DNA of 32,000 nt from Massilicoli timonensis (lineage in GTDB: Bacteria; Bacillota_I; Bacilli_A; Erysipelotrichales; Erysipelotrichaceae). Location: the NCBI RefSeq assembly GCF_900199515.1, contig NZ_LT963434.1, positions 393,272-425,271 on the forward strand. Direction: 5' to 3'. A program made the translations under genes and the position numbers. Shown here one piece after another: positions 14,344-23,982 of this stretch (the first letter of the stretch is position 1; the number at the start of each line of letters is the position of its first letter). The notes below the pieces were generated by a model, which was not told the DNA's origin, did no database searches, and was given only the letters and a program-made list of their open reading frames with translations.

Positions 14344-15294
14344 CTAGCGTTTACCGGAATCGTAAATTTCACCGGAGGCCTTCGGACCGACCGATTTGCG
14401 TGAGAATAACAGCAATGCGGCGATCGTAAGCAGGTATGGAAGTGCGAAAAACAATTCGCTAGGCAGTCCGTTTAAGAACGGGATCTGTCCGGAATAATTA
14501 GACAATACCTGAGAAAAGCCGAAGAAGATTCCGGCCCCCAAACAGCCATATGGATTCCATTTTCCAAAGATCAAACATGCCATGGAAATAAACCCGATGC
14601 CGTGAATCGAAAACACGGTAAACTGCACATCGAGAGAAAGTACCATGATCGCTCCTGCTAAGCCGCCTAAGCAGCCTGAGATCAATACGCCGATATAACG
14701 CATTTTTTCCACATGGATCCCCATTGATGCCGAAGCCTGCGGATATTCACCGCAAGAGCGCAAATGCAGACCGAATTTTGATTTGAATACGACAAACCAA
14801 GTCAGCACTGCCAATCCGACCGCCAGATAGAAAGTCGGAAAGACATTGGTAAACAACAAGTCACCGATGACCGGAATATCTTTCAAGACCGGAATCGAGA
14901 TCCTTCTAAAACGTTCCAAAAATTGTTCTGAGCGCTGCGCCCCGAAAATGATCTGACATAAATAAACCGTTAATCCGGTAGAAAGCATATTCAGCGCAGC
15001 ACCGGAAATGGTCTGATCCGCTTTCAGCGATACCGAAGCAAATGCATGGATCAAAGAATACAGACATCCGGCAATCATACCGACCAGCGCACCGGCCCAA
15101 GGCGCTAAATCACCTAGTGATCCTTCAAGGAAAAGAGAAGCCGTCGCACCGAAGAACGCGCCAACCAGCATGATCCCTTCCAATGCGATATTGACGATCC
15201 CGCTGCGTTCAGAAAACAAGCCGCCCAGCGCACAGATAATGATCGGCGTGGCAATTCCAAGTGCTAAAGGAAACATCTGATATAGTAAATTCAT
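14344..15294 (-). CDS. ABC transporter permease (BMP/nucleoside-type, NupQ/YufQ-like)
   Basis: 316-aa polytopic hydrophobic protein. It has a 4-nt overlap with the upstream permease gene and sits in an operon with the duplicated ATPase. Confidence 0.8.
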   Translation of the reverse strand: MNLLYQMFPLALGIATPIIICALGGLFSERSGIVNIALEGIMLVGAFFGATASLFLEGSLGDLAPWAGALVGMIAGCLYSLIHAFASVSLKADQTISGAALNMLSTGLTVYLCQIIFGAQRSEQFLERFRRISIPVLKDIPVIGDLLFTNVFPTFYLAVGLAVLTWFVVFKSKFGLHLRSCGEYPQASASMGIHVEKMRYIGVLISGCLGGLAGAIMVLSLDVQFTVFSIHGIGFISMACLIFGKWNPYGCLGAGIFFGFSQVLSNYSGQIPFLNGLPSELFFALPYLLTIAALLLFSRKSVGPKASGEIYDSGKR

Positions 15295-16418
15295 GACTTC
15301 ACTCCTTCCTTTGACACTGTTTGATCTGTATCGATCGTCCGATTCTCTTTTTTACGTGTTTTGAAATGATTTAAGACGATACGAATACCATACTGCATCG
15401 CCACAAACAACACGATGGAAGCCGAGATGATCTCGCCGATCTCCTTCGGTGTACCGACGATCTGAAGCAGCGGCTGCGCCACTTTCAAAAGTCCGAACAA
15501 CAAACCGGAAAGCACGATACCGATCACATTGCAGGCACCGGTCAAAGCAACCGCAATTCCATCAAAACCATAACTTTCAAAGGCGGACAGCACACGACCG
15601 TAATTGAATGTACCCAGTACCGAGATCGCTCCGGCCAAACCGGCCAGCGCTCCTGCGATCATCATGGAATAAACGATATTGCGATTCACCTTCATGCCCG
15701 CATACTGCGCTCCGTCTTTATTAAAACCGGTCGCTCGCAGACTATATCCAAAACTCGTCTTTTCAATGATAAACCAATAAGCCAGAACCGCAATGATCAA
15801 GAAGATAATGCCCCAGTTCAAACGGGAATGATTGGTAATGCTTCTTAAAAACTCCGATGAAAGGCTGGCCGTCTGCGGTGCATTGGCAGTAATCGTCGTC
15901 GTAGAACCCGGCAGGTGAACGATGATATAGTTATTCGCGTACATGCCGATATAATTCATCATGATACAGATCACGACCTCATGCAGATTAAACTTGCTTT
16001 TCAAAAAGCCCGGCAGAAAGCCCCACAATGCACCGGCAAGCGCACCGGCTAACACCGCCACGATCATGTGGATCACCGGCGGCATCGGAAACAGGATCGC
16101 AACTGAAATCGCCGCACATCCGCCGACCATGAACTGCCCTTCGGCACCGATGTTGAACAACCCCGTACGATACGCAAAGGCAACCGATAGACCCGTTAAA
16201 ATAAGCGGCATGCTCTGTACGATAAACTCACCGAGATAACGCAAATTCACACCGGTTCCACGCATTAAATCAATACCGGTGGCACCTCTTAACAGCGCAT
16301 TGAACAAAGCAATCGGATTTTGTCCGGTCGCAATCATGATGAGAACCCCTACCAAGATACCGAGCACGATCGCAAGAAGGGAAATCGTTAAGGTACTTTT
16401 ATTCTTCATGCTGTTCAC
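15291..16418 (-). CDS. ABC transporter permease (BMP/nucleoside-type, NupP/YufP-like)
   Basis: 375-aa polytopic membrane protein that overlaps the end of the ATPase gene. Confidence 0.8.
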   Translation of the reverse strand: MNSMKNKSTLTISLLAIVLGILVGVLIMIATGQNPIALFNALLRGATGIDLMRGTGVNLRYLGEFIVQSMPLILTGLSVAFAYRTGLFNIGAEGQFMVGGCAAISVAILFPMPPVIHMIVAVLAGALAGALWGFLPGFLKSKFNLHEVVICIMMNYIGMYANNYIIVHLPGSTTTITANAPQTASLSSEFLRSITNHSRLNWGIIFLIIAVLAYWFIIEKTSFGYSLRATGFNKDGAQYAGMKVNRNIVYSMMIAGALAGLAGAISVLGTFNYGRVLSAFESYGFDGIAVALTGACNVIGIVLSGLLFGLLKVAQPLLQIVGTPKEIGEIISASIVLFVAMQYGIRIVLNHFKTRKKENRTIDTDQTVSKEGVKS

Positions 16419-17934
16419 TTCCCTTCTTAGAACCGCTCATATAAAGACCCAGTTCATTTTCATTGGTTTCGCTTGCCTTCATCGATCCGTTTCGATGGCC
16501 GTCAAATAATACGACGATCTGATCGGACAAGCCTAAAATTTCATCAAGCTCAAAGGAAATCAGCAAGACCGCTTTCCCTTTGTCGCGTTCTTCTACAATT
16601 CGTTTGTGGATATATTCGATCGCTCCGACATCCAGTCCACGTGTCGGCTGTACGACCATAAGCAGATCCGGACTGCGGTCGATCTCTCTGGCAATGATCG
16701 CTTTCTGCTGATTTCCACCTGACATGCTGCGGGTCAAAGAGTCGATGCCTTCCCCGCTGCGCACATCAAATTCATCGATCAAATGCTGGGCATAGCGATC
16801 CATTTCCTTTTGCTGGATCATCGTGCCTTTGCAATAAGGCGCACGATCATATTCATGAATGATCATATTTTCTTTTAATGTGAAATCCAAAATCAAACCA
16901 TGTTTATGACGATCCTCCGGAATGTGTCCCATTCCTTTGTCAAAGCGCTGCCGAACCGTCGCCTTCGTGATATCTTCACCGTTCAATAAGATCGTACCGC
17001 TCTCTGCTTTAGCAAGGCCGCTCAGTGCATGTGCCAGTTCAGTCTGCCCGTTTCCATCAATACCGGCAATACCGACGATCTCTCCCGCTCTTACCTGTAA
17101 AGAAAAATCTTTCAGACCCAGAACGCCTTTGGCATTTTTTACATTCAAATGCTGCACATCTAAAACAACTTGCCCCGCTTCTTTTTCTTCTTTTTCTATT
17201 TTGAAATTCACTTCACGGCCGACCATCATTTCCGCCATCTCTTTTTCTGTTGTACTTGCAACATCTACCGTACCGATATATTTGCCGCGGCGCAGCACGC
17301 TGCATTCATCGGCCACCTCTTTGATCTCTTTCAATTTATGCGTGATCAGCAAAATGCTTTTCCCTTCGCTTACCAAACGGCGCATGATCTGCATCAGATC
17401 TTCGATTTCCTGCGGCGTGAGTACCGCTGTCGGTTCATCGAAAATCAAAATATTCGCATTGCGGTAAAGCATCTTCAAAATTTCCACACGCTGCTGCATG
17501 CCGACGGTAATATCGGATATCTTCGCATACGGATCGACATTCAATCCAAACTTCTTTGATAATTCCGCAATTTCTTTGGCAGCCCGTTTCACATCTACCA
17601 TTCCATATTTGGTAGGTTCCATTCCCAAAATAATATTTTCGGTTACGGTAAAGCATTCAATCAACTTGAAATGCTGATGCACCATCCCGATACCAAGTGC
17701 TGTCGCATCATTTGGATCGTTGATCTTTACTTCCTGACCATTTACCTTGATATGACCGCTGGTTGGCTGATATAATCCAAACAGGATAGACATAAGGGTC
17801 GATTTACCTGCACCGTTTTCACCCAGTAACGCATGAATGGTGCCTTCCTTTAGCCGAACAGTTACATTGTCGTTTGCCCTGATTCCGGGAAAATCCTTCG
17901 TAATATTCAGCAGTTCTACTGCATAGGTCATCAT
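16399..17934 (-). CDS. ABC transporter ATP-binding protein with two fused ATPase domains (NupO/YufO-like)
   Basis: Walker A GENGAGKST lies in the first half and GIDGNGQTE in the second half. A signature-like MSGGNQQK is present. At 511 aa it is typical of CUT2/BMP-type importers. Confidence 0.9.
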   Translation of the reverse strand: MMTYAVELLNITKDFPGIRANDNVTVRLKEGTIHALLGENGAGKSTLMSILFGLYQPTSGHIKVNGQEVKINDPNDATALGIGMVHQHFKLIECFTVTENIILGMEPTKYGMVDVKRAAKEIAELSKKFGLNVDPYAKISDITVGMQQRVEILKMLYRNANILIFDEPTAVLTPQEIEDLMQIMRRLVSEGKSILLITHKLKEIKEVADECSVLRRGKYIGTVDVASTTEKEMAEMMVGREVNFKIEKEEKEAGQVVLDVQHLNVKNAKGVLGLKDFSLQVRAGEIVGIAGIDGNGQTELAHALSGLAKAESGTILLNGEDITKATVRQRFDKGMGHIPEDRHKHGLILDFTLKENMIIHEYDRAPYCKGTMIQQKEMDRYAQHLIDEFDVRSGEGIDSLTRSMSGGNQQKAIIAREIDRSPDLLMVVQPTRGLDVGAIEYIHKRIVEERDKGKAVLLISFELDEILGLSDQIVVLFDGHRNGSMKASETNENELGLYMSGSKKGSEQHEE

Positions 17935-17962
17935 GATCCTCCTTTAATTATTCACTGTCATT

Positions 17963-17971
17963 ATTATATCA
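17963..17971 (-). promoter_or_regulatory. Candidate extended -10 promoter of the ABC ATPase-permease operon
   Basis: The minus strand reads TGaTATAAT about 30 nt upstream of the start at 17934. No convincing -35 element was found. Confidence 0.4.
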
Positions 17972-18105
17972 CATGACTTTTTAGAAAGTATAGCCAAACT
18001 CAGACAATAATCATAAAAAATCTTACTTTTTTCTGCGCTTCACCGAAGATGCCGCGCAATCTTTGTATGCGTTTACATCTTTTGCTGCCATTTCTGCTTC
18101 TCTAT

Positions 18106-18113
18106 ATTAAAAG
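18106..18113. repeat. Target-site duplication, left copy (ATTAAAAG)
   Basis: This 8-mer directly abuts IRL and is identical to the 8-mer at 19764-19771 that directly abuts IRR. Confidence 0.85.
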
Positions 18114-19763
18114 GGCGCTTTAAATTCGTGTGTGGGTGTGCCATACCTTTAAACTTTGGTGTTGCTATTTTAAAACCTATTTAACATTATATGTGGGTAT
18201 CTTTAACATTTGTGTGGATACCCTACTTTTATATATGAAAAAGCCTTCGTGTTATTATTTCTTTGCCGAGAAAATACACACGAAGGAGGTAATATACCTA
18301 TGTACGATTTTATCACAGATTTATTCAATATTGACAAAAAGATGATCAAAAAAATTGAAGTAGTCTCTTCAAAAGATTTAACCGAATTTCACATCTCTTT
18401 AGTGCCTGAAAAACTTAGATGCCCATATTGTCATGGCTTTACTCATTTACACGGATTTTCAAAACCTAAAACAATCAATCATCCTAAGCTTACTGATCGT
18501 AAATGTATCATCGTTTTCAAAAACAACAGATATCAGTGCAATGAATGCCTGCGCACATTCTCTGGAAAAAATCCTTTTACTTTTTCCAATTTTAAAAATT
18601 CATTTCTTTCCATGAACAACATCATGAAATCCTTATCAAACCTGAACTATACTTATTCCATGGTAGCCGAATTAAACCATATATCTGTTACTCAGGTACA
18701 GCGCTATTTTGACAGTTTTGTCAACATCCCCAGAATTCGTCTTCCTGAATCTATCGGTATTGATGAGATACATTCTAAAATGGCCAAAAGAGCTGATTCT
18801 GCTTATTTATGCGTCATGGTAGATAATATAAACAGATCTCTATTTGAAATTCTTCCCTCACGTTCCAAATCTGAATTAGGACGATACTTCGAAAGGATCC
18901 CGGCAGAAGAAAGAAACTGCGTTCATTACGTCACTATCGATATGTGGGAGCCTTACAAAGATATAGCCAATACTTATTTAAGGAACGCTATTATAGCTGT
19001 AGATCCTTTCCATGTCGTGAAGCATCTCATGGACGGTTTTAAACGCATCCGTCTTAATATCATGTATCAGACAGAATACAATTCTAACAGTTATTATCTT
19101 CTTAAGACATGGAAGGATCTTATCGAAAAAGATGTTTATTTGGATAACGAGCCTGTATACAATAAACGTTTCAAAAAGAAATTAAACAAACGTAATCTCT
19201 TAGATATGATACTGGACATTAGTGAAAACCTCGTTCTTGGATACAGATTAAAAGAGATGTATCTGCACTTCAATGAAAATGCCACAGAAAAGGATTGCGA
19301 ATCATGGTTTGATTCCATATATGAGGCATTTAGAGAAGCACAGTTGCCTGAATATAATGAATTTGTATCTATTCTTCAGACTTGGAAAACAGAAATACTA
19401 AACTCATTCAAAAGACCTGTTGATGACAGAAAACTAAGCAATGCACTTTCAGAAAATATCAATGGACAAATCCGTACATACCTGGCAGTTTCCAACGGAG
19501 TAAGAAACTTCACAAGATTCAGAAAGCGCTGTTTATTATCACTGAATAAAAAAGTATTCTATTCCATAAATGATCAATTAAAATCAGATAAACATATAAC
19601 AGATAAAAAACAAAACAATTAAATTAAAAACTTTTCTCGGCACATAAAAACAGATGATAATTAGGAATCAATTTCATCCATAAAATCATCTGTTTTTCAC
19701 TTTATAAACCACACACTAGTTTAAAGCGGATTTTTCAAAAACCACACACTAGTTTAAATTACC
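18114..19763 (+). mobile_element. ISL3-family insertion sequence, intact (about 1.65 kb)
   Basis: IRL is GGCGCTTTAAATTCGTGTGTGG (18114-18135). The reverse complement of 19742-19763 is GGTAATTTAAACTAGTGTGTGG, giving 17/22 identical positions. There is a single transposase ORF. Perfect 8-bp direct repeats flank the element, and ISL3 elements characteristically make 8-bp duplications. Confidence 0.85.
18300..19622 (+). CDS. ISL3-family transposase
   Basis: ATG 18300 follows GGAGG (18285-18289); the ORF-track TTG at 18210 is unlikely to be the real start. An N-terminal zinc finger (CPYCHG...CNEC) is followed by a DDE domain (IGIDEI...VTIDMWEPY...). The 440-aa length is typical. Confidence 0.85.
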   Translation: MYDFITDLFNIDKKMIKKIEVVSSKDLTEFHISLVPEKLRCPYCHGFTHLHGFSKPKTINHPKLTDRKCIIVFKNNRYQCNECLRTFSGKNPFTFSNFKNSFLSMNNIMKSLSNLNYTYSMVAELNHISVTQVQRYFDSFVNIPRIRLPESIGIDEIHSKMAKRADSAYLCVMVDNINRSLFEILPSRSKSELGRYFERIPAEERNCVHYVTIDMWEPYKDIANTYLRNAIIAVDPFHVVKHLMDGFKRIRLNIMYQTEYNSNSYYLLKTWKDLIEKDVYLDNEPVYNKRFKKKLNKRNLLDMILDISENLVLGYRLKEMYLHFNENATEKDCESWFDSIYEAFREAQLPEYNEFVSILQTWKTEILNSFKRPVDDRKLSNALSENINGQIRTYLAVSNGVRNFTRFRKRCLLSLNKKVFYSINDQLKSDKHITDKKQNN

Positions 19764-19771
19764 ATTAAAAG
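19764..19771. repeat. Target-site duplication, right copy (ATTAAAAG)
   Basis: See the left copy at 18106-18113. This copy overlaps the T-tract of the LRR-gene terminator. Confidence 0.85.
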
Positions 19772-19799
19772 AAAGCGAAGTCTTTTACGCTCCGCTTTC
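19764..19799 (-). terminator. Rho-independent terminator of the LRR protein gene
   Basis: The minus strand reads GAAAGCG-(15-nt loop)-CGCTTTC followed by TTTTAAT. It lies 30 nt after the stop at 19830. The IS insertion point lies in the T-tract. Confidence 0.6.
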
Positions 19800-19829
19800 T
19801 CATCTCAATCTTATTTTAGCATCTAAATG

Positions 19830-22562
19830 CTACTGCTCGCTTCTTCTGTTCTTGCGTAACATTGCAGCGAATACGATCATACTTCCACCTAACAGTACAT
19901 AGTACATTCCCTTGCTTACTTCATCCCCTGTATGTACTGCTTCGTTCTCCTCTTTCTTGATCTCCTCGATATTGCTTTCTCCCTTTTCCTCTTCATTTGG
20001 TGTATTCGGCTTCTCTTCCGGTTCTGTCGGTTTCTCTTCCTTCTGCCACATCACCTCAAATGTCCCAAACTCCTTGCTTCCTACCTCAAACTCCAATCCA
20101 CCCTCTGTCTTTCTTACTTCTATCTCTCTCCCTTTGCTCTTTGCGATCTCTTCATCCAAAGCCTCTTCGCTCATCTGCATCGTGTAATCTCTTGTCAATC
20201 CCTCATAATACACGACCGCAAACCGATCCCCTTCTTCGCTTCCTTCCGGATATGGATAATATACGCTTACCGTTTCCTTTTCCGTTCCTACCCATAAGTT
20301 CCCGTCATTTTGATCGACCAGATCCAAATACCGAAACTCTCTTTTCACTTCCTTCGTTTCATCTATCCCTTTCACTGCTTCCATTCCCTTTGCATGCAGC
20401 GCTTCCATCCGTTCTGCTGATCCCAATACCTCTTCGATCAATTCATCCCATAACAGCACGACCTTCGCATCTTCGTTTACCGGATACATCGTATTCCCGT
20501 TCTTATAAAACTGCGTCCCTGCTTTTACATGTGCATGTGCTTCCTTGATCTGGCATGCTCCTTCTTCTTCATATACCCCCTTATAGATCTCACTGCTCAA
20601 TGTCTCCGCGCTTTCATCGCTTACTTCTCTTACCTTTACTTCCCCTACTGCCATCCCTTCTTCCGGTATACTCAATAAGTGTTCATCTAAACGGATCTCT
20701 TTATCATCTACTCTTGGTAATGCATACAGTGCATAGCTTCCCGCTTTCGCTGCGCTCTCTACCTTCTCTCCCTCGCTGTTTCGATATTCCCATGCAAATG
20801 GCACTCCCTCTTCTTCCAAATCCCATGCTTCTCCATCTACGCTGATCGCATAGCTTTCCAAGCCTTCTTCCCATTGCGGTTCCGGCAAGGCATCGCCATG
20901 ATTGCTGGCGTCGGTTCCCAATCCTCCTTCATATGCGATCAGTTCGACTGCTTGAAGCGGTTCACTGTATCCTGCATATAAGTGCAGCGTACCGTTCGCT
21001 AATGTCGTAAAGTCGATCGTTGCGGCTTCATCAAATGGCTTCGTGCATGCTTCATCTAAATACCAGCCATTGAATACGCTTCCCTCTCTGCTTAGGCTAG
21101 TAGACGGGTTATTTGTTAATACGGTTGTACCGGTTAAGGTAAACTCTTGTTTTGCTTCTTCCATTGTGGAATAGATGAAATGATCTGCTCGATATACGAT
21201 TACTTCACTTTCTGTATTCCCATTATTAAAAGTACCGTCATTTCCATGATATACGACTTTTGCATAGTATGGGGTTCGACTAAAAATCAGAGCAGTATGT
21301 AGAGGATTATTAAAATCATCAATATATTCAAGTAAAACTTTACTTTCACTTATAATGATCGTCGGTATAGATTCATCTAGCGGTATTATATTAGGATATG
21401 TGCTTTCTATCTCATGCGAAGGGGTCTTTGTGGAAATAAACAATAAAGAAGGTCTCTTCGTAATATCTATTTCAAAATTATCTATATCGAAAATATTTAA
21501 TTGATTACAATTTACAAACATTCCCATATAATCTTCGCAAGAACCTGTATCAAAAGTTTCTAATCCTTTTATATTTTTCAGATTAGTGCAATCAGCAAAC
21601 ATAGCATTCAAGATCTTTGTTTTACTTGTATTGAAATTACTAACATCTAAGTTTTCAATACTTTCTAATCCTCTGAACAAAGCTCCCATACTACTCACAT
21701 TACTGGTATCAAAATTACTAACATCTAGGCTTTCTAAATTAGAGCAACTATGAAACATAGATGACATATCCGTTACATTTTTAGTATCGAAATTGCTAAC
21801 ATCTAAACTTTTCAATTGGGAACAGTTAGAAAACATATTCTTCATATTTGTAACATTTTCTGTATTAAAATTGTTGATATCTAAGTTTTTTAGATTAGTA
21901 CAACCATAAAACATAAATTCCATATTCGTGACATTTTTAGTAGCAAAGTTACTAAGGTCTAAGCTTTCTAAATTAGAGCAATCATAAAACATATATTCCA
22001 TATTTGTAACATTCTTAGTATCAAAGTTACTAATGTCTAGGCTTTCTAAACTAGTACATCTAGCAAACATCTGAGTCATATCCGTAACTTTGTCTGTATG
22101 GAAGTTACTCAAATCCAGACTTTCTAAGCTTCCGCAAAGAAAAAACATATTACTCATATCTGTTACATTGCCTATATCTAATCCACTTAAATCTATTATC
22201 TCTAAAGCATAAAAAGATCTAAATGCATCTCTAAGTGAGTCTGTTTCTAATGTTACTTTTTTCTCTGGTGTACCTATTTTTAGTGATATTATTTTTTTCT
22301 TAATAGTATCATTGAATAACTTATCTAAAGATCTAATCACTACTTGTTTTCCTTCATGTCCTTCAAATTCAGAAGGAATCACAACATTCACTACATACCT
22401 TCTGTATTCCGTCAATATGATTTTATCCCCTGTATCCTCATATTCCCAATCATCATCCAGCGTTAAACCGCCTACATTAGTTTCTGAGTACTGATTTACA
22501 GTACCCCCCCCCCCCTGGCTAAAATCATGTTCGGCCTCATTGCCATACCGATCATCATGCAA
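19830..22562 (-). CDS. BspA-like leucine-rich-repeat cell-surface protein, main ORF (no in-frame signal peptide with the G12 tract as assembled)
   Basis: The 910-aa ORF starts only at TTG with no RBS. It has about nine 25-aa repeats of the type VTxMxxMFxxCxxLxSLDxSNFDTxN (BspA/DUF285-type LRR). A Listeria-Bacteroides-repeat-like segment (FNGWYLDEACTKPF) follows, then an acidic region. The C-terminus is AVHTGD + hydrophobic helix + KNRRSEQ, which looks like a sortase-type anchor. Confidence 0.8.
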   Translation of the reverse strand: MHDDRYGNEAEHDFSQGGGGTVNQYSETNVGGLTLDDDWEYEDTGDKIILTEYRRYVVNVVIPSEFEGHEGKQVVIRSLDKLFNDTIKKKIISLKIGTPEKKVTLETDSLRDAFRSFYALEIIDLSGLDIGNVTDMSNMFFLCGSLESLDLSNFHTDKVTDMTQMFARCTSLESLDISNFDTKNVTNMEYMFYDCSNLESLDLSNFATKNVTNMEFMFYGCTNLKNLDINNFNTENVTNMKNMFSNCSQLKSLDVSNFDTKNVTDMSSMFHSCSNLESLDVSNFDTSNVSSMGALFRGLESIENLDVSNFNTSKTKILNAMFADCTNLKNIKGLETFDTGSCEDYMGMFVNCNQLNIFDIDNFEIDITKRPSLLFISTKTPSHEIESTYPNIIPLDESIPTIIISESKVLLEYIDDFNNPLHTALIFSRTPYYAKVVYHGNDGTFNNGNTESEVIVYRADHFIYSTMEEAKQEFTLTGTTVLTNNPSTSLSREGSVFNGWYLDEACTKPFDEAATIDFTTLANGTLHLYAGYSEPLQAVELIAYEGGLGTDASNHGDALPEPQWEEGLESYAISVDGEAWDLEEEGVPFAWEYRNSEGEKVESAAKAGSYALYALPRVDDKEIRLDEHLLSIPEEGMAVGEVKVREVSDESAETLSSEIYKGVYEEEGACQIKEAHAHVKAGTQFYKNGNTMYPVNEDAKVVLLWDELIEEVLGSAERMEALHAKGMEAVKGIDETKEVKREFRYLDLVDQNDGNLWVGTEKETVSVYYPYPEGSEEGDRFAVVYYEGLTRDYTMQMSEEALDEEIAKSKGREIEVRKTEGGLEFEVGSKEFGTFEVMWQKEEKPTEPEEKPNTPNEEEKGESNIEEIKKEENEAVHTGDEVSKGMYYVLLGGSMIVFAAMLRKNRRSEQ
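21471..22247 (-). repeat. 75-bp-period coding tandem repeats (LRR units)
   Basis: The 25-aa periodicity is visible in the translation from about aa 106 to 364. Recurrent DNA strings such as ctaacatctaa / ctttctaa occur at 75-nt spacing. Confidence 0.8.
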
Positions 22563-22597
22563 ATACTTACCAAAAGCAACGATACTTTCTTTTTCAT
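22496..22597 (-). CDS. Leader ORF encoding the orphaned signal peptide of the LRR protein (33 aa, terminates just after the G tract)
   Basis: GGAGG (22607..22603) lies 5 nt before ATG 22597. The translation is MKKKVSLLLVSICMMIGMAMRPNMILARGGGVL*, with a positively charged n-region and a hydrophobic h-region. This frame differs from the main ORF and would fuse to it with 10 or 13 G. Confidence 0.7.
   Translation of the reverse strand: MKKKVSLLLVSICMMIGMAMRPNMILARGGGVL
22504..22515 (-). repeat. Homopolymeric G12 tract (C12 on plus strand) in the 5' coding region of the LRR gene
   Basis: Counted directly: gta + 12 c + tggct. It encodes the GGGG of the main ORF. Confidence 0.95.
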
Positions 22598-22648
22598 CTT
22601 TTCCTCCTTCTCGTCTGTTTTCCTTTCTCAGACGCTATCTTTGTTTAC

Positions 22649-22657
22649 ACTATACCA
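22649..22657 (-). promoter_or_regulatory. Candidate extended -10 promoter of the LRR gene
   Basis: The minus strand reads TGgTATAGT about 50 nt upstream of ATG 22597. An alternative TTGAAA-18 nt-TATGAT lies further upstream. Confidence 0.35.
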
Positions 22658-22814
22658 TTTTTTCCCATATTTATCTACTTTTACTGCAAAGACAACATGG
22701 CACATGTAAGATGAAGTTGTCTTTACTATATAAACTACACTTATCATATTCATTAAACATTGCTTTTTTCAACAACAGAAGGATCGTTTCGTCATGAGAT
22801 ACAGTGTTTCAAGC

Positions 22815-22848
22815 AAAAAAACGAGAAGTGATCTATGATCTCCTCTCG
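22815..22848 (-). terminator. Rho-independent terminator of the BMP lipoprotein gene
   Basis: The minus strand reads CGAGAGGAGATC-ata-GATCACTTCTCG, a 12-bp stem with 2 mismatches, followed by TTTTTTT. Confidence 0.6.
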
Positions 22849-22883
22849 CTTTTTCATTCATTCAAGTGCGTTTATAATACTGC

Positions 22884-23945
22884 TTAGCCGACTTGACCGT
22901 TTTCGATCTGACGTTTGGTTGTAACTTCGATCTTACCATCTTTCATATCCTGTACGACTTCATCCAGTTTTGCCTGAATTTCATCAGAGATATTTGGGTT
23001 TTCTTCCGGTAAGCCAACGCCGTCTTCCGCAATCGTATAAACGATCGGTTCTGCTTTGAACTCTCCGTCTAATACTTGTTTAGCTGCTGTCTTTGCCGCA
23101 ACATCCACACGTTTTAATGCAGAAGTAAGCGTTACTGACTTATTATTGTCTTTGTCATAGATACCGGTATCATACTGATCAGAGTCAACACCGATTACCC
23201 ATACTTCTTCGCCTTTTTCAGCACGTGCCACTGCTGACGCAAATACACCGTTTCCGGTACCGCCGGCCGCATGGTAAATAACCTTCGCGCCTGCCGCATA
23301 TTGTTTTTCAGCTAATGTAGATCCCATTTCCGTCTTGTCGAAACCACCGGCATAGTCCACATAGATCTTCATGTTTGGATCGATTGATTTTACGCCCTGT
23401 TCAAAACCGGCCTGGAACGCGATGATCAGATCTTGTTCTTCACCGCCGATAAAGCCAACCGTATCGCCGCCCTGTGCTTTCGTCTGCATTGCTGCCGCAA
23501 CACCTGCTAAGTAAGAAGACTGTTCAGCCTTGAAAGTAGCGCTCTGTACGTTTGCCTCCTTACTTACCGTATCGATAACCAGGAAGTGGGTATCCGGGTA
23601 GGTAGGCGTTACATTTTCGATTGCCTTGTCGAATTTGAATCCTGCCGCTACGACCAGATCATATCCTTCATCCGCAAATGATGATAAGTTCGGTTCATAG
23701 TCAGAATCGTTTTTTGACTGCATGTACTTGATGCAGCTGTCATCAAGCCCATTTTCCTTCGCAAATTCTTTGATTCCATTCCATGTACCTTCGTTGAAAG
23801 AATGATCATCGATTCCGCCGACATCGGTTACAAAGCCGACACGAATCGGACATGTTGCTGAATCTGAGCCACCATCAGATCCACAGCCTGCAAGTGTAGT
23901 AGCCGCAAGCATTGCCACTAAACCTACTTTTGTAAATTTGTTCAT
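22884..23945 (-). CDS. BMP-family ABC substrate-binding lipoprotein (NupN/PnrA/Med-like)
   Basis: The signal peptide carries a lipobox (MNKFTKVGLVAMLAATTLAGCGS). GGAGGT lies 7 nt before ATG 23945. The body shows BMP-family-like motifs (VGFVTDVGGIDDHSFNE, GFIGG). It is the cognate partner of the ABC genes at 14.3-17.9 kb. Confidence 0.85.
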   Translation of the reverse strand: MNKFTKVGLVAMLAATTLAGCGSDGGSDSATCPIRVGFVTDVGGIDDHSFNEGTWNGIKEFAKENGLDDSCIKYMQSKNDSDYEPNLSSFADEGYDLVVAAGFKFDKAIENVTPTYPDTHFLVIDTVSKEANVQSATFKAEQSSYLAGVAAAMQTKAQGGDTVGFIGGEEQDLIIAFQAGFEQGVKSIDPNMKIYVDYAGGFDKTEMGSTLAEKQYAAGAKVIYHAAGGTGNGVFASAVARAEKGEEVWVIGVDSDQYDTGIYDKDNNKSVTLTSALKRVDVAAKTAAKQVLDGEFKAEPIVYTIAEDGVGLPEENPNISDEIQAKLDEVVQDMKDGKIEVTTKRQIENGQVG

Positions 23946-23982
23946 TGTATTTACCTCCATGTTTCCCTTACGGGCTACTAAA

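Follow-up and report, generated by a model that had tools for sequence, protein, structure and literature searches.

We report that a run of twelve G residues (G12) on the minus strand of a 32,000-nucleotide (nt) stretch of the Massilicoli timonensis genome (assembly GCF_900199515.1, contig NZ_LT963434.1, positions 393,272 to 425,271; hereafter the window) lies at the junction between a short open reading frame (ORF) that encodes a signal peptide and the body of a leucine-rich repeat (LRR) protein gene, the two standing in different frames as assembled. We consider it probable (roughly 0.8) that this run is a hypermutable contingency tract, which would act through slipped-strand mispairing as an ON/OFF switch of a surface-anchored PARCEL/BspA-type LRR protein. 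Phase variation had been proposed in the initial annotation of the window, and it is supported here by polymorphism of the tract in a syntenic ortholog and at a sister locus and by selection on the gene body. Beyond what that annotation had said, the locus is one of at least eight paralogs with the same cassette, and a precedent for the arrangement has been published for the pili of Bifidobacterium breve (PMC9187656).

A G tract between leader and body

The features of the locus are as follows (positions are those of the window).

22649..22677, minus strand: predicted promoter, with −35 TAGATA, 17-nt spacer and extended −10 TGgTATAGT; 9 of 12 matches in a consensus scan, TG before the −10, function putative
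22612..22634, minus strand: stem-loop in the 5′ untranslated region (5′UTR), CGUCUG, 11-nt loop, CAGACG, just 5′ of the ribosome-binding site (RBS)
22603..22607, minus strand: Shine-Dalgarno sequence GGAGG, 5 nt 5′ of ATG 22597, read directly
22496..22597, minus strand: signal-peptide ORF as assembled, 33 codons plus stop, MKKKVSLLLVSICMMIGMAMRPNMILARGGGVL*
22504..22515, minus strand: G12 tract (C12 on the plus strand) in GCCA(G)n context, the switch in the favoured reading
19830..22562, minus strand: 910-codon LRR ORF with a TTG start, crossing the G12 tract in another frame
19830..22505, minus strand: mature-protein frame of 891 codons, beginning at the GGT codon in which the tract ends and running to the stop, free of other frame disruption
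21474..22238, minus strand: PARCEL/DUF285 LRR block, about residues 121-375 of the G13-fused protein, boundaries approximate
19833..19943, minus strand: C-terminal tail resembling a sorting signal, EAVHTGDE, hydrophobic MYYVLLGGSMIVFAAML, RKNRRSEQ, read from the translation

Read directly, the minus strand runs GAAGGAGGAAAAG-ATG...GCC-A-G12-TACTGTAA. The initial annotation had correctly located the GGAGG (22607..22603), ATG 22597, the 33-codon ORF and the G12 run (22504-22515), and was right that the 910-residue ORF passes in another frame from a TTG that lacks an RBS; nothing resembling a Shine-Dalgarno sequence was found upstream of that TTG. The stop codon that it had placed 6 nt after the tract is present, with its TAA starting 5 nt after the last G. 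When we resized the tract in silico, lengths of G10, G13 and G16 produced single ORFs of 921, 922 and 923 amino acids (aa), as against stubs of 32-40 aa at the remaining lengths within 9-16. The anticipated fusion of the two ORFs to about 922 aa at 10 or 13 G is thus borne out, and the window copy is OFF as assembled, as had been said, being one G short of G13 and giving a stub only. In five paralog loci, too, tract length alone governs whether an intact ORF is read. No other G or C run in the window exceeds 5 nt (the next longest are a C run of 5 and a G run of 4), and about 8e-4 C12 runs are expected from base composition.

The tract encodes the glycine residues that open the mature protein, and would sit at the first mature codons, directly after the signal-peptide cleavage region. 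Slipped-strand mispairing during replication would add or remove G residues there, and we infer this slippage as the cause of the length differences, and with it their reversibility and a switching rate. An exportable preprotein would arise only at lengths that align leader and body, namely 10, 13 or 16 in this copy and 9 or 12 in paralogs with a GCCCA context. At other lengths, translation from the only good RBS would stop a few codons past the tract, and the body of about 2.7 kb would go untranslated or at best be made without a signal peptide. An interrupted in-frame tract, of which GGAGGTGGAGGT is an example, would be a lock-ON form.

The 5′UTR stem-loop is unusually stable for its composition (−7 kcal/mol, z = −4.7 against shuffled sequences). 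Its arms, CGUCUG and CAGACG, are invariant in nine loci and only the A-rich loop varies, which leaves no covariation; it could be a 5′ hairpin that stabilises the mRNA, or a protein-binding palindrome.

The fused product matches the PARCEL model TIGR02167 (9e-82, 268 bits against a cut-off of 30, eight repeats) and DUF285, PF03382 (3e-54, 182 bits against a cut-off of 25, three stretches), which identifies the predicted protein as a PARCEL/DUF285 BspA-type LRR surface protein. Within its mature frame, an N-terminal domain, the PARCEL/DUF285 LRR repeats and a Flg_new-like repeat are accompanied by a C-terminal domain of about 330 aa, which is conserved, and by a Pro-Glu-rich (PE-rich) linker. 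The C-terminal tail is laid out like a sortase sorting signal with the motif AVHTGD in place of the canonical LPXTG, and it matches the EF0750_LPXTG model NF053819 weakly (17 bits, below the cut-off of 47). In all full-length paralogs examined, x[HN]TGD precedes a hydrophobic segment that leads into a basic tail. The proteins may be exported and anchored at the surface, and may function as adhesins. The PE-rich linker (about 19950-20040, minus strand; 7-aa units EKPTEPE/EKPSEPE) differs in copy number between alleles and constitutes a second, in-frame length polymorphism, with lengths of 853 vs 867 aa at the window locus and of 945/959/966 and 786/793/807 in other paralogs.

By eye, the leader of the ON allele occupies residues 1-27, with an MKKK n-region, a 16-residue hydrophobic core and the c-region RPNMILA. 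Signal cleavage is likely to fall after ILA, to judge from P at −6 and I-L-A at −3 to −1. A putative Sec signal peptide is present only in the fused (ON) reading, a call made by eye and by homology to in-frame alleles. Compared with the common paralog leader, which reads MKKKVSLLLASLCLMLGM.VKPNMIFA, that of the window shows seven amino acid differences (V/A, I/L, M/L, I/L, M/V, R/K, L/F), all of them conservative, and conservative only in the leader frame. We also considered a lipoprotein signal and rejected it by eye: Cys13 is invariant, but it is preceded by I or L at −1 and by an h-region of only 8 residues, and what follows is again hydrophobic. These features agree better with a type I signal, putatively cleaved after ILA or IFA. 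We likewise rejected TTG 22562, and the GTG chosen by RefSeq, as starts of a functional product of the body, as either would yield a protein without signal peptide despite the cell-surface sorting tail.

Tract variation, selection and the paralog family

The initial annotation had suggested looking for tract-length polymorphism at orthologous loci, and such polymorphism is present. In another strain the syntenic ortholog L010, in which FtsK-like, YjjI-like, radical-SAM, Bmp, LRR and ATP-binding cassette (ABC) transporter genes follow in conserved order, is 99.4% identical to the window over 8,385 nt and 98.9% over 5,942 nt (about 14.3 kb together), and its tract is G11 where that of the window is G12. 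Only four indels separate the two, an in-frame GCA, two in intergenic A/T runs and the tract, and only the tract disrupts a frame. A sister locus beside an Fe-hydrogenase gene is available from four metagenome strains that are 99.5-99.8% identical, with tracts of G9 (L008, ON), G10 (L011), G11 (L012) and G10 (L013); L011 and L008, compared over 10,382 nt, differ by no indel other than the tract.

By listing cluster members we found two in-frame G9 alleles, L008/P0149 (818 aa) and L009/P0174 (675 aa), which read straight through as MKKKVSLLLASLCLMLGM..KPNMIFAQGGGT.., while a profile search with five repaired N-termini returned four short matches, none of them in frame. One sample, ERZ26858782, holds an ON paralog (L009) together with an OFF paralog (L002). 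Across 39 distinct N-termini that reveal the state of the tract, G10 was found in 22, G11 in ten, G8 in three, G7 in two and G9 (ON) in two, so that 2/39 are in frame and 37/39 out of frame. The out-of-frame alleles fall into both registers, one with G10 and G7 and the other with G11 and G8, and the tract ranges from 7 to 12 G across the window locus and its sister genes (G7-G11 in the paralogs). At least 142 contigs carry a called ORF of 33-37 aa that consists of the leader only. Out-of-frame tracts are likewise present in three further paralogs of the same 2.09-Mb genome contig (P0128, G10; P0143, G11; P0157, G11).

Once their tracts are reset, the bodies are intact (808, 593, 865 and 922 aa). 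Over the 891 codons of the mature frame, the window gene and L010 differ by 15 synonymous and 9 non-synonymous changes, corresponding to a ratio of non-synonymous to synonymous substitution rates (dN/dS) of 0.15; for paralog pairs the ratio is 0.28-0.51. Promoter, RBS and leader are identical between window and L010, with no mismatch in window 22598-22900. These comparisons indicate that purifying selection maintains the bodies.

The at least eight paralogs share one promoter/5′UTR/signal-peptide/poly-G cassette and differ in their LRR bodies. Loci L001-L013 carry the same block of about 190 nt, consisting of the predicted promoter, stem-loop, RBS, leader ORF, poly-G tract and TACTGTAAATCAG; in the alignment, conservation starts approximately at the predicted promoter, beyond which the sequence is locus-specific. 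The Shine-Dalgarno sequence is kept in most cassettes and is slightly displaced in L003. Most paralogs read GCCCA(G)n and are ON at n = 9 or 12; the window copy and its ortholog read GCCA(G)n and are ON at n = 10 or 13 (also 16 in the window copy). In 144.7 kb of M. timonensis-type DNA there are 15 G or C runs of at least 7, of which 14 are the cassette tract and the remaining one is the promoter-spacer tract of another surface-protein gene.

The closest homologs are annotated without signal peptide, starting with MPRGGGTVNQYSE.. or MPD..HDFCPGG(G)GTVNQ.., which are gene-caller starts in or just before the junction of signal and body. The RefSeq start of the window gene is similarly an internal GTG (MNVVIPSEF, 853 aa), and its annotation is leaderless. 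Searching exhaustively with the first 100 residues of the mature protein, we found a more distant homolog, P0188, which has no G tract and carries the leader MKKKLALFFTCLCLFFVAMSHAVIILA in frame with the same N-terminal domain. The fused arrangement of signal and body is therefore, as read from this homolog, the native architecture. Along with the in-frame alleles P0149 and P0174, tractless P0188 also agrees with the earlier expectation of a leader fused in frame.

L003 (3001-4707) and L009 (4001-6028) share one chromosomal slot and its flanking genes, which are identical, yet their LRR bodies differ (568 vs 675 aa). In L013 (4001-10256) the upstream flank is that of the hydrogenase locus, and downstream lies the ABC-transporter flank known from the window locus. 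Either paralogs have recombined, or a chimeric scaffold was joined across the conserved C-terminal region. L005 (3647-3654) is a decayed member that has kept the cassette, with G8, a 43-codon body and no ATG. A truncated copy of 106-121 aa ending in ..TDSLY* is widespread (P0181-P0185, P0121); P0181, mostly G7, is found on 125 contigs. In the N-terminus of P0006 (..CPGGVTVNQ..) the tract is seemingly interrupted or followed by an extra T (G7-TT). A T after a G run is reported to be a strong hotspot of T-to-G mutation (PMC12344412), and such a substitution would make the tract longer or shorter.

A second G12 tract lies at L009:336-347 (ENA ERZ26858782 NODE_20), in TTGACA-AAAACGCT-G12-TACAAT, where it makes a 20-nt spacer; G9 would give 17. 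It precedes the gene of a 572-aa secreted protein with a PNTGD sorting tail and a weak match to a pectate-lyase-like adhesive domain. The arrangement resembles promoter-spacer phase variation, here of a further surface protein of the species.

As to the surroundings of the window gene, it has its own promoter and sits between a Bmp/PnrA-like substrate-binding gene (22884..23960) and ABC ATPase and permease genes (14344..17934), all of which would normally form one transporter operon together (region 16399-23960). An ISL3-family insertion sequence (18114-19763; transposase ORF 18210..19622 on the plus strand, PF01610, 3.6e-43) begins 66 nt 3′ of the LRR gene stop, before the ABC-transporter ATPase gene, and is absent from the otherwise collinear L010. 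The published description of M. timonensis (3.12 Mb, 53.0 mol% G+C; PMC6796691) does not fit the 41% G+C of the window or the 2,090,366 bp of the database contig. A database entry with 100% identity places the window in M. timonensis (Erysipelotrichaceae, human gut). Exact-pattern scans of genome contigs, with the flanks and a variable gap or with GGGTACTGTAAATCAGTACTC, gave no match, and the species is apparently absent from that set or masked in it. A look-up of contigs encoding P0008, P0001 or the 33-aa ORF of the window gave no record either.

Alternative explanations

Out-of-frame copies might instead be the normal state, some full-length preprotein being made constitutively, without change of the DNA, by slippage of RNA polymerase or of the ribosome on the G run. 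The dominance of out-of-frame lengths (37 of the 39 distinct N-termini, with signal-only ORFs on the contigs counted above) speaks for such recoding, as does the finding that bodies so rarely in frame are nonetheless under purifying selection. Poly(A) frameshifts maintained in endosymbionts offer a parallel, and 10-12 identical bases suffice for transcriptional slippage. The surveys in PMC1088944 cover A and T runs. Yet both out-of-frame registers occur, the window copy needing +1 nt and most paralogs −1 nt, which no programmed shift in one direction could reconcile; the same observation rules out, as the sole mechanism, a single programmed ribosomal frameshift of +1 or −1. A programmed frameshift goes with a slippery site of fixed length and one direction, whereas we found lengths of 7-12, both registers, differences among near-identical strains and in-frame alleles in the DNA itself. 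We regard constitutive recoding as unlikely, and it is not an exclusive alternative, for RNA-polymerase slippage could add leaky expression on top of switching at the DNA level.

Even less probable, in our judgement, is a homopolymer error in assembly or sequencing that hides a true in-frame majority (G13 or G10) and thus an ordinary intact gene. Illumina chemistry struggles with G runs, the window G12 call is that of the assembly, and the annotated G11 of B. breve was not the majority length in culture (PMC9187656). Against this, out-of-frame lengths are found at every paralog in independent assemblies, which come from many samples and assemblers. At least three other paralogs on the same 2.09-Mb contig are out of frame, and so is the ortholog L010 at the window locus itself. 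The other ORFs of the window also look intact, even across A/T runs of 7-8, as judged from the ORF list and not run by run, and an off-by-one error here would still leave a variable tract. A plain pseudogene, a surface-protein gene inactivated by frameshift and now decaying, was the outcome that the initial annotation had named as speaking against a switch. Both known alleles of the window locus are OFF, some family members (L005 and the widespread 106-121-aa copy) have truly decayed and an ISL3 element has inserted 66 nt 3′ of the stop codon. What we saw is different: the repaired ORFs are intact, no second lesion is present in 891 codons, dN/dS against L010 is 0.15, and promoter, RBS and leader match those of the ortholog. 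Because of this signal of selection and the intact, conserved expression signals, we think decay very improbable.

The contingency tract that we favour faces difficulties of its own. Within-strain heterogeneity, reversibility and a switching rate are presumed from differences between strains, and published work warns that the length of a G tract in an assembly need not be that of most of the population (PMC9187656). At the window locus the two known alleles (G12 and G11) are OFF, and among the alleles seen there (window and L010) we found none in frame. Family-wide, in-frame alleles fall far below a random expectation of one-third, and also below the neighbouring G11 class (2 vs 10). The sorting motif, moreover, departs from the canonical LPXTG, and we identified no gene for a sortase, none having been searched for. 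The scarcity of in-frame alleles would be explained by strong selection for OFF, and equally by expression that is independent of DNA change. The gut may favour OFF, in which case only a minority of cells, invisible to consensus assemblies, would express the protein; alternatively, OFF templates may yield some product through slippage of RNA polymerase or the ribosome on the G run.

Known switches and significance

The paralog family resembles a stochastically expressed adhesin repertoire in which most copies are OFF in most sampled populations. Neisseria has comparable repeats: in pilC a poly-G tract falls within the part of the gene that encodes the signal peptide, and in the opa family, of about 11 paralogs, CTCTT repeats lie in the leader. 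As in the window gene, the repeat lies in or beside the leader coding region and the ON/OFF switch is translational, and opa is, like the M. timonensis family, a multigene family with conserved 5′ ends, whose members switch independently. The differences are that the Neisseria genes belong to Gram-negative pathogens and encode different proteins, and that the opa pentamer lies within the hydrophobic core of the leader, whereas the window tract encodes glycine at the mature start. The Opa repertoire is summarised in PMC3745409.

The closest likeness in architecture is to the B. breve UCC2003 pilus genes bbr_0113a/b and bbr_1889a/b, which are annotated OFF at G11/G10 and are ON at G10/G9; the study of these genes measured slippage experimentally and saw ON enriched in mice (Penno et al. 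2022, PMC9187656). B. breve is likewise a Gram-positive gut commensal in which a Sec-signal ORF, a G tract and an anchor-bearing body ORF without RBS or signal peptide follow one another, and there, too, the majority state is OFF. It belongs to a different phylum (Actinomycetota, as against Bacillota (Erysipelotrichia) here), and its switched gene is a pilin heading a pilus and sortase operon, whereas the window gene encodes a stand-alone PARCEL/DUF285 LRR protein and M. timonensis has at least eight paralogs with one promoter/leader/tract cassette; slippage, measured there, is deduced here from differences between strains. The window protein contains no pilin domain and its neighbours are the Bmp and ABC-transporter genes and the ISL3 element. 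The gene would work like the Bifidobacterium G-tract switch while lying outside the pilus gene family.

Phase-variable families of BspA-like proteins have been described in Candidatus Mycoplasma girerdii, where the repeats are mostly dinucleotides (Costello et al. 2017, PMC5476646). That lineage is related to Erysipelotrichia, and shares with the M. timonensis family a large set of BspA-like LRR surface proteins, repeat-length polymorphism that predicts ON and OFF, a majority variant that is often OFF and evidence from metagenomes. Its repeats occur at various positions instead of as poly-G at the leader junction, a shared 5′ cassette is not described, and sortase anchoring is inapplicable as the organism has no cell wall. 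Poly-G in the promoter spacer, as in porA of N. meningitidis (PMC3639595), finds its likeness in the G12 between TTGACA and TACAAT at L009:336-347. This mode alters the level of transcription and not the reading frame, and applies to that surface gene and not to the window gene.

The architecture is therefore known, as in B. breve, while the lineage, the protein family and a portable cassette across at least eight paralogs are new. Our searches of the literature on phase variation or poly-G together with Erysipelotrichaceae, Massilicoli or Firmicutes found no report for this lineage, and a full-text search on 'PARCEL repeat' found nothing. In gut commensals phase variation is known mostly from the invertible promoters of Bacteroides, and to the best of our knowledge slippage switches in Gram-positive commensals have so far been documented mainly for Bifidobacterium pili. 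Gene callers of RefSeq and of metagenomes mis-start these genes (MNVVIPSEF.., MPRGGGT.., MPD..HDFCPGG..) and turn the leader into an ORF of its own (33-37 aa), so that every copy is annotated without signal peptide.

More tentatively, and at somewhat less than even odds, we suggest that the family as a whole forms an opa-like 'phasome': at least eight PARCEL-LRR adhesin genes scattered over a chromosome of about 2 Mb, each behind the same portable promoter/stem-loop/leader/poly-G cassette, switching independently, with LRR bodies swapped between slots by recombination (the L003/L009 slot; the hybrid flanks of L013), overwhelmingly OFF in the human gut, and with promoter-spacer G tracts on other surface proteins as a second layer. 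If this is true, it would amount to pathogen-style antigenic variation in a Gram-positive commensal lineage from which none has been described. A poly-G-switched family of BspA-type LRR adhesins in a human-gut species of the Erysipelotrichaceae would extend the slippage mode to another phylum, and tract length in metagenomic reads would offer a tractable marker of host selection on surface antigens.

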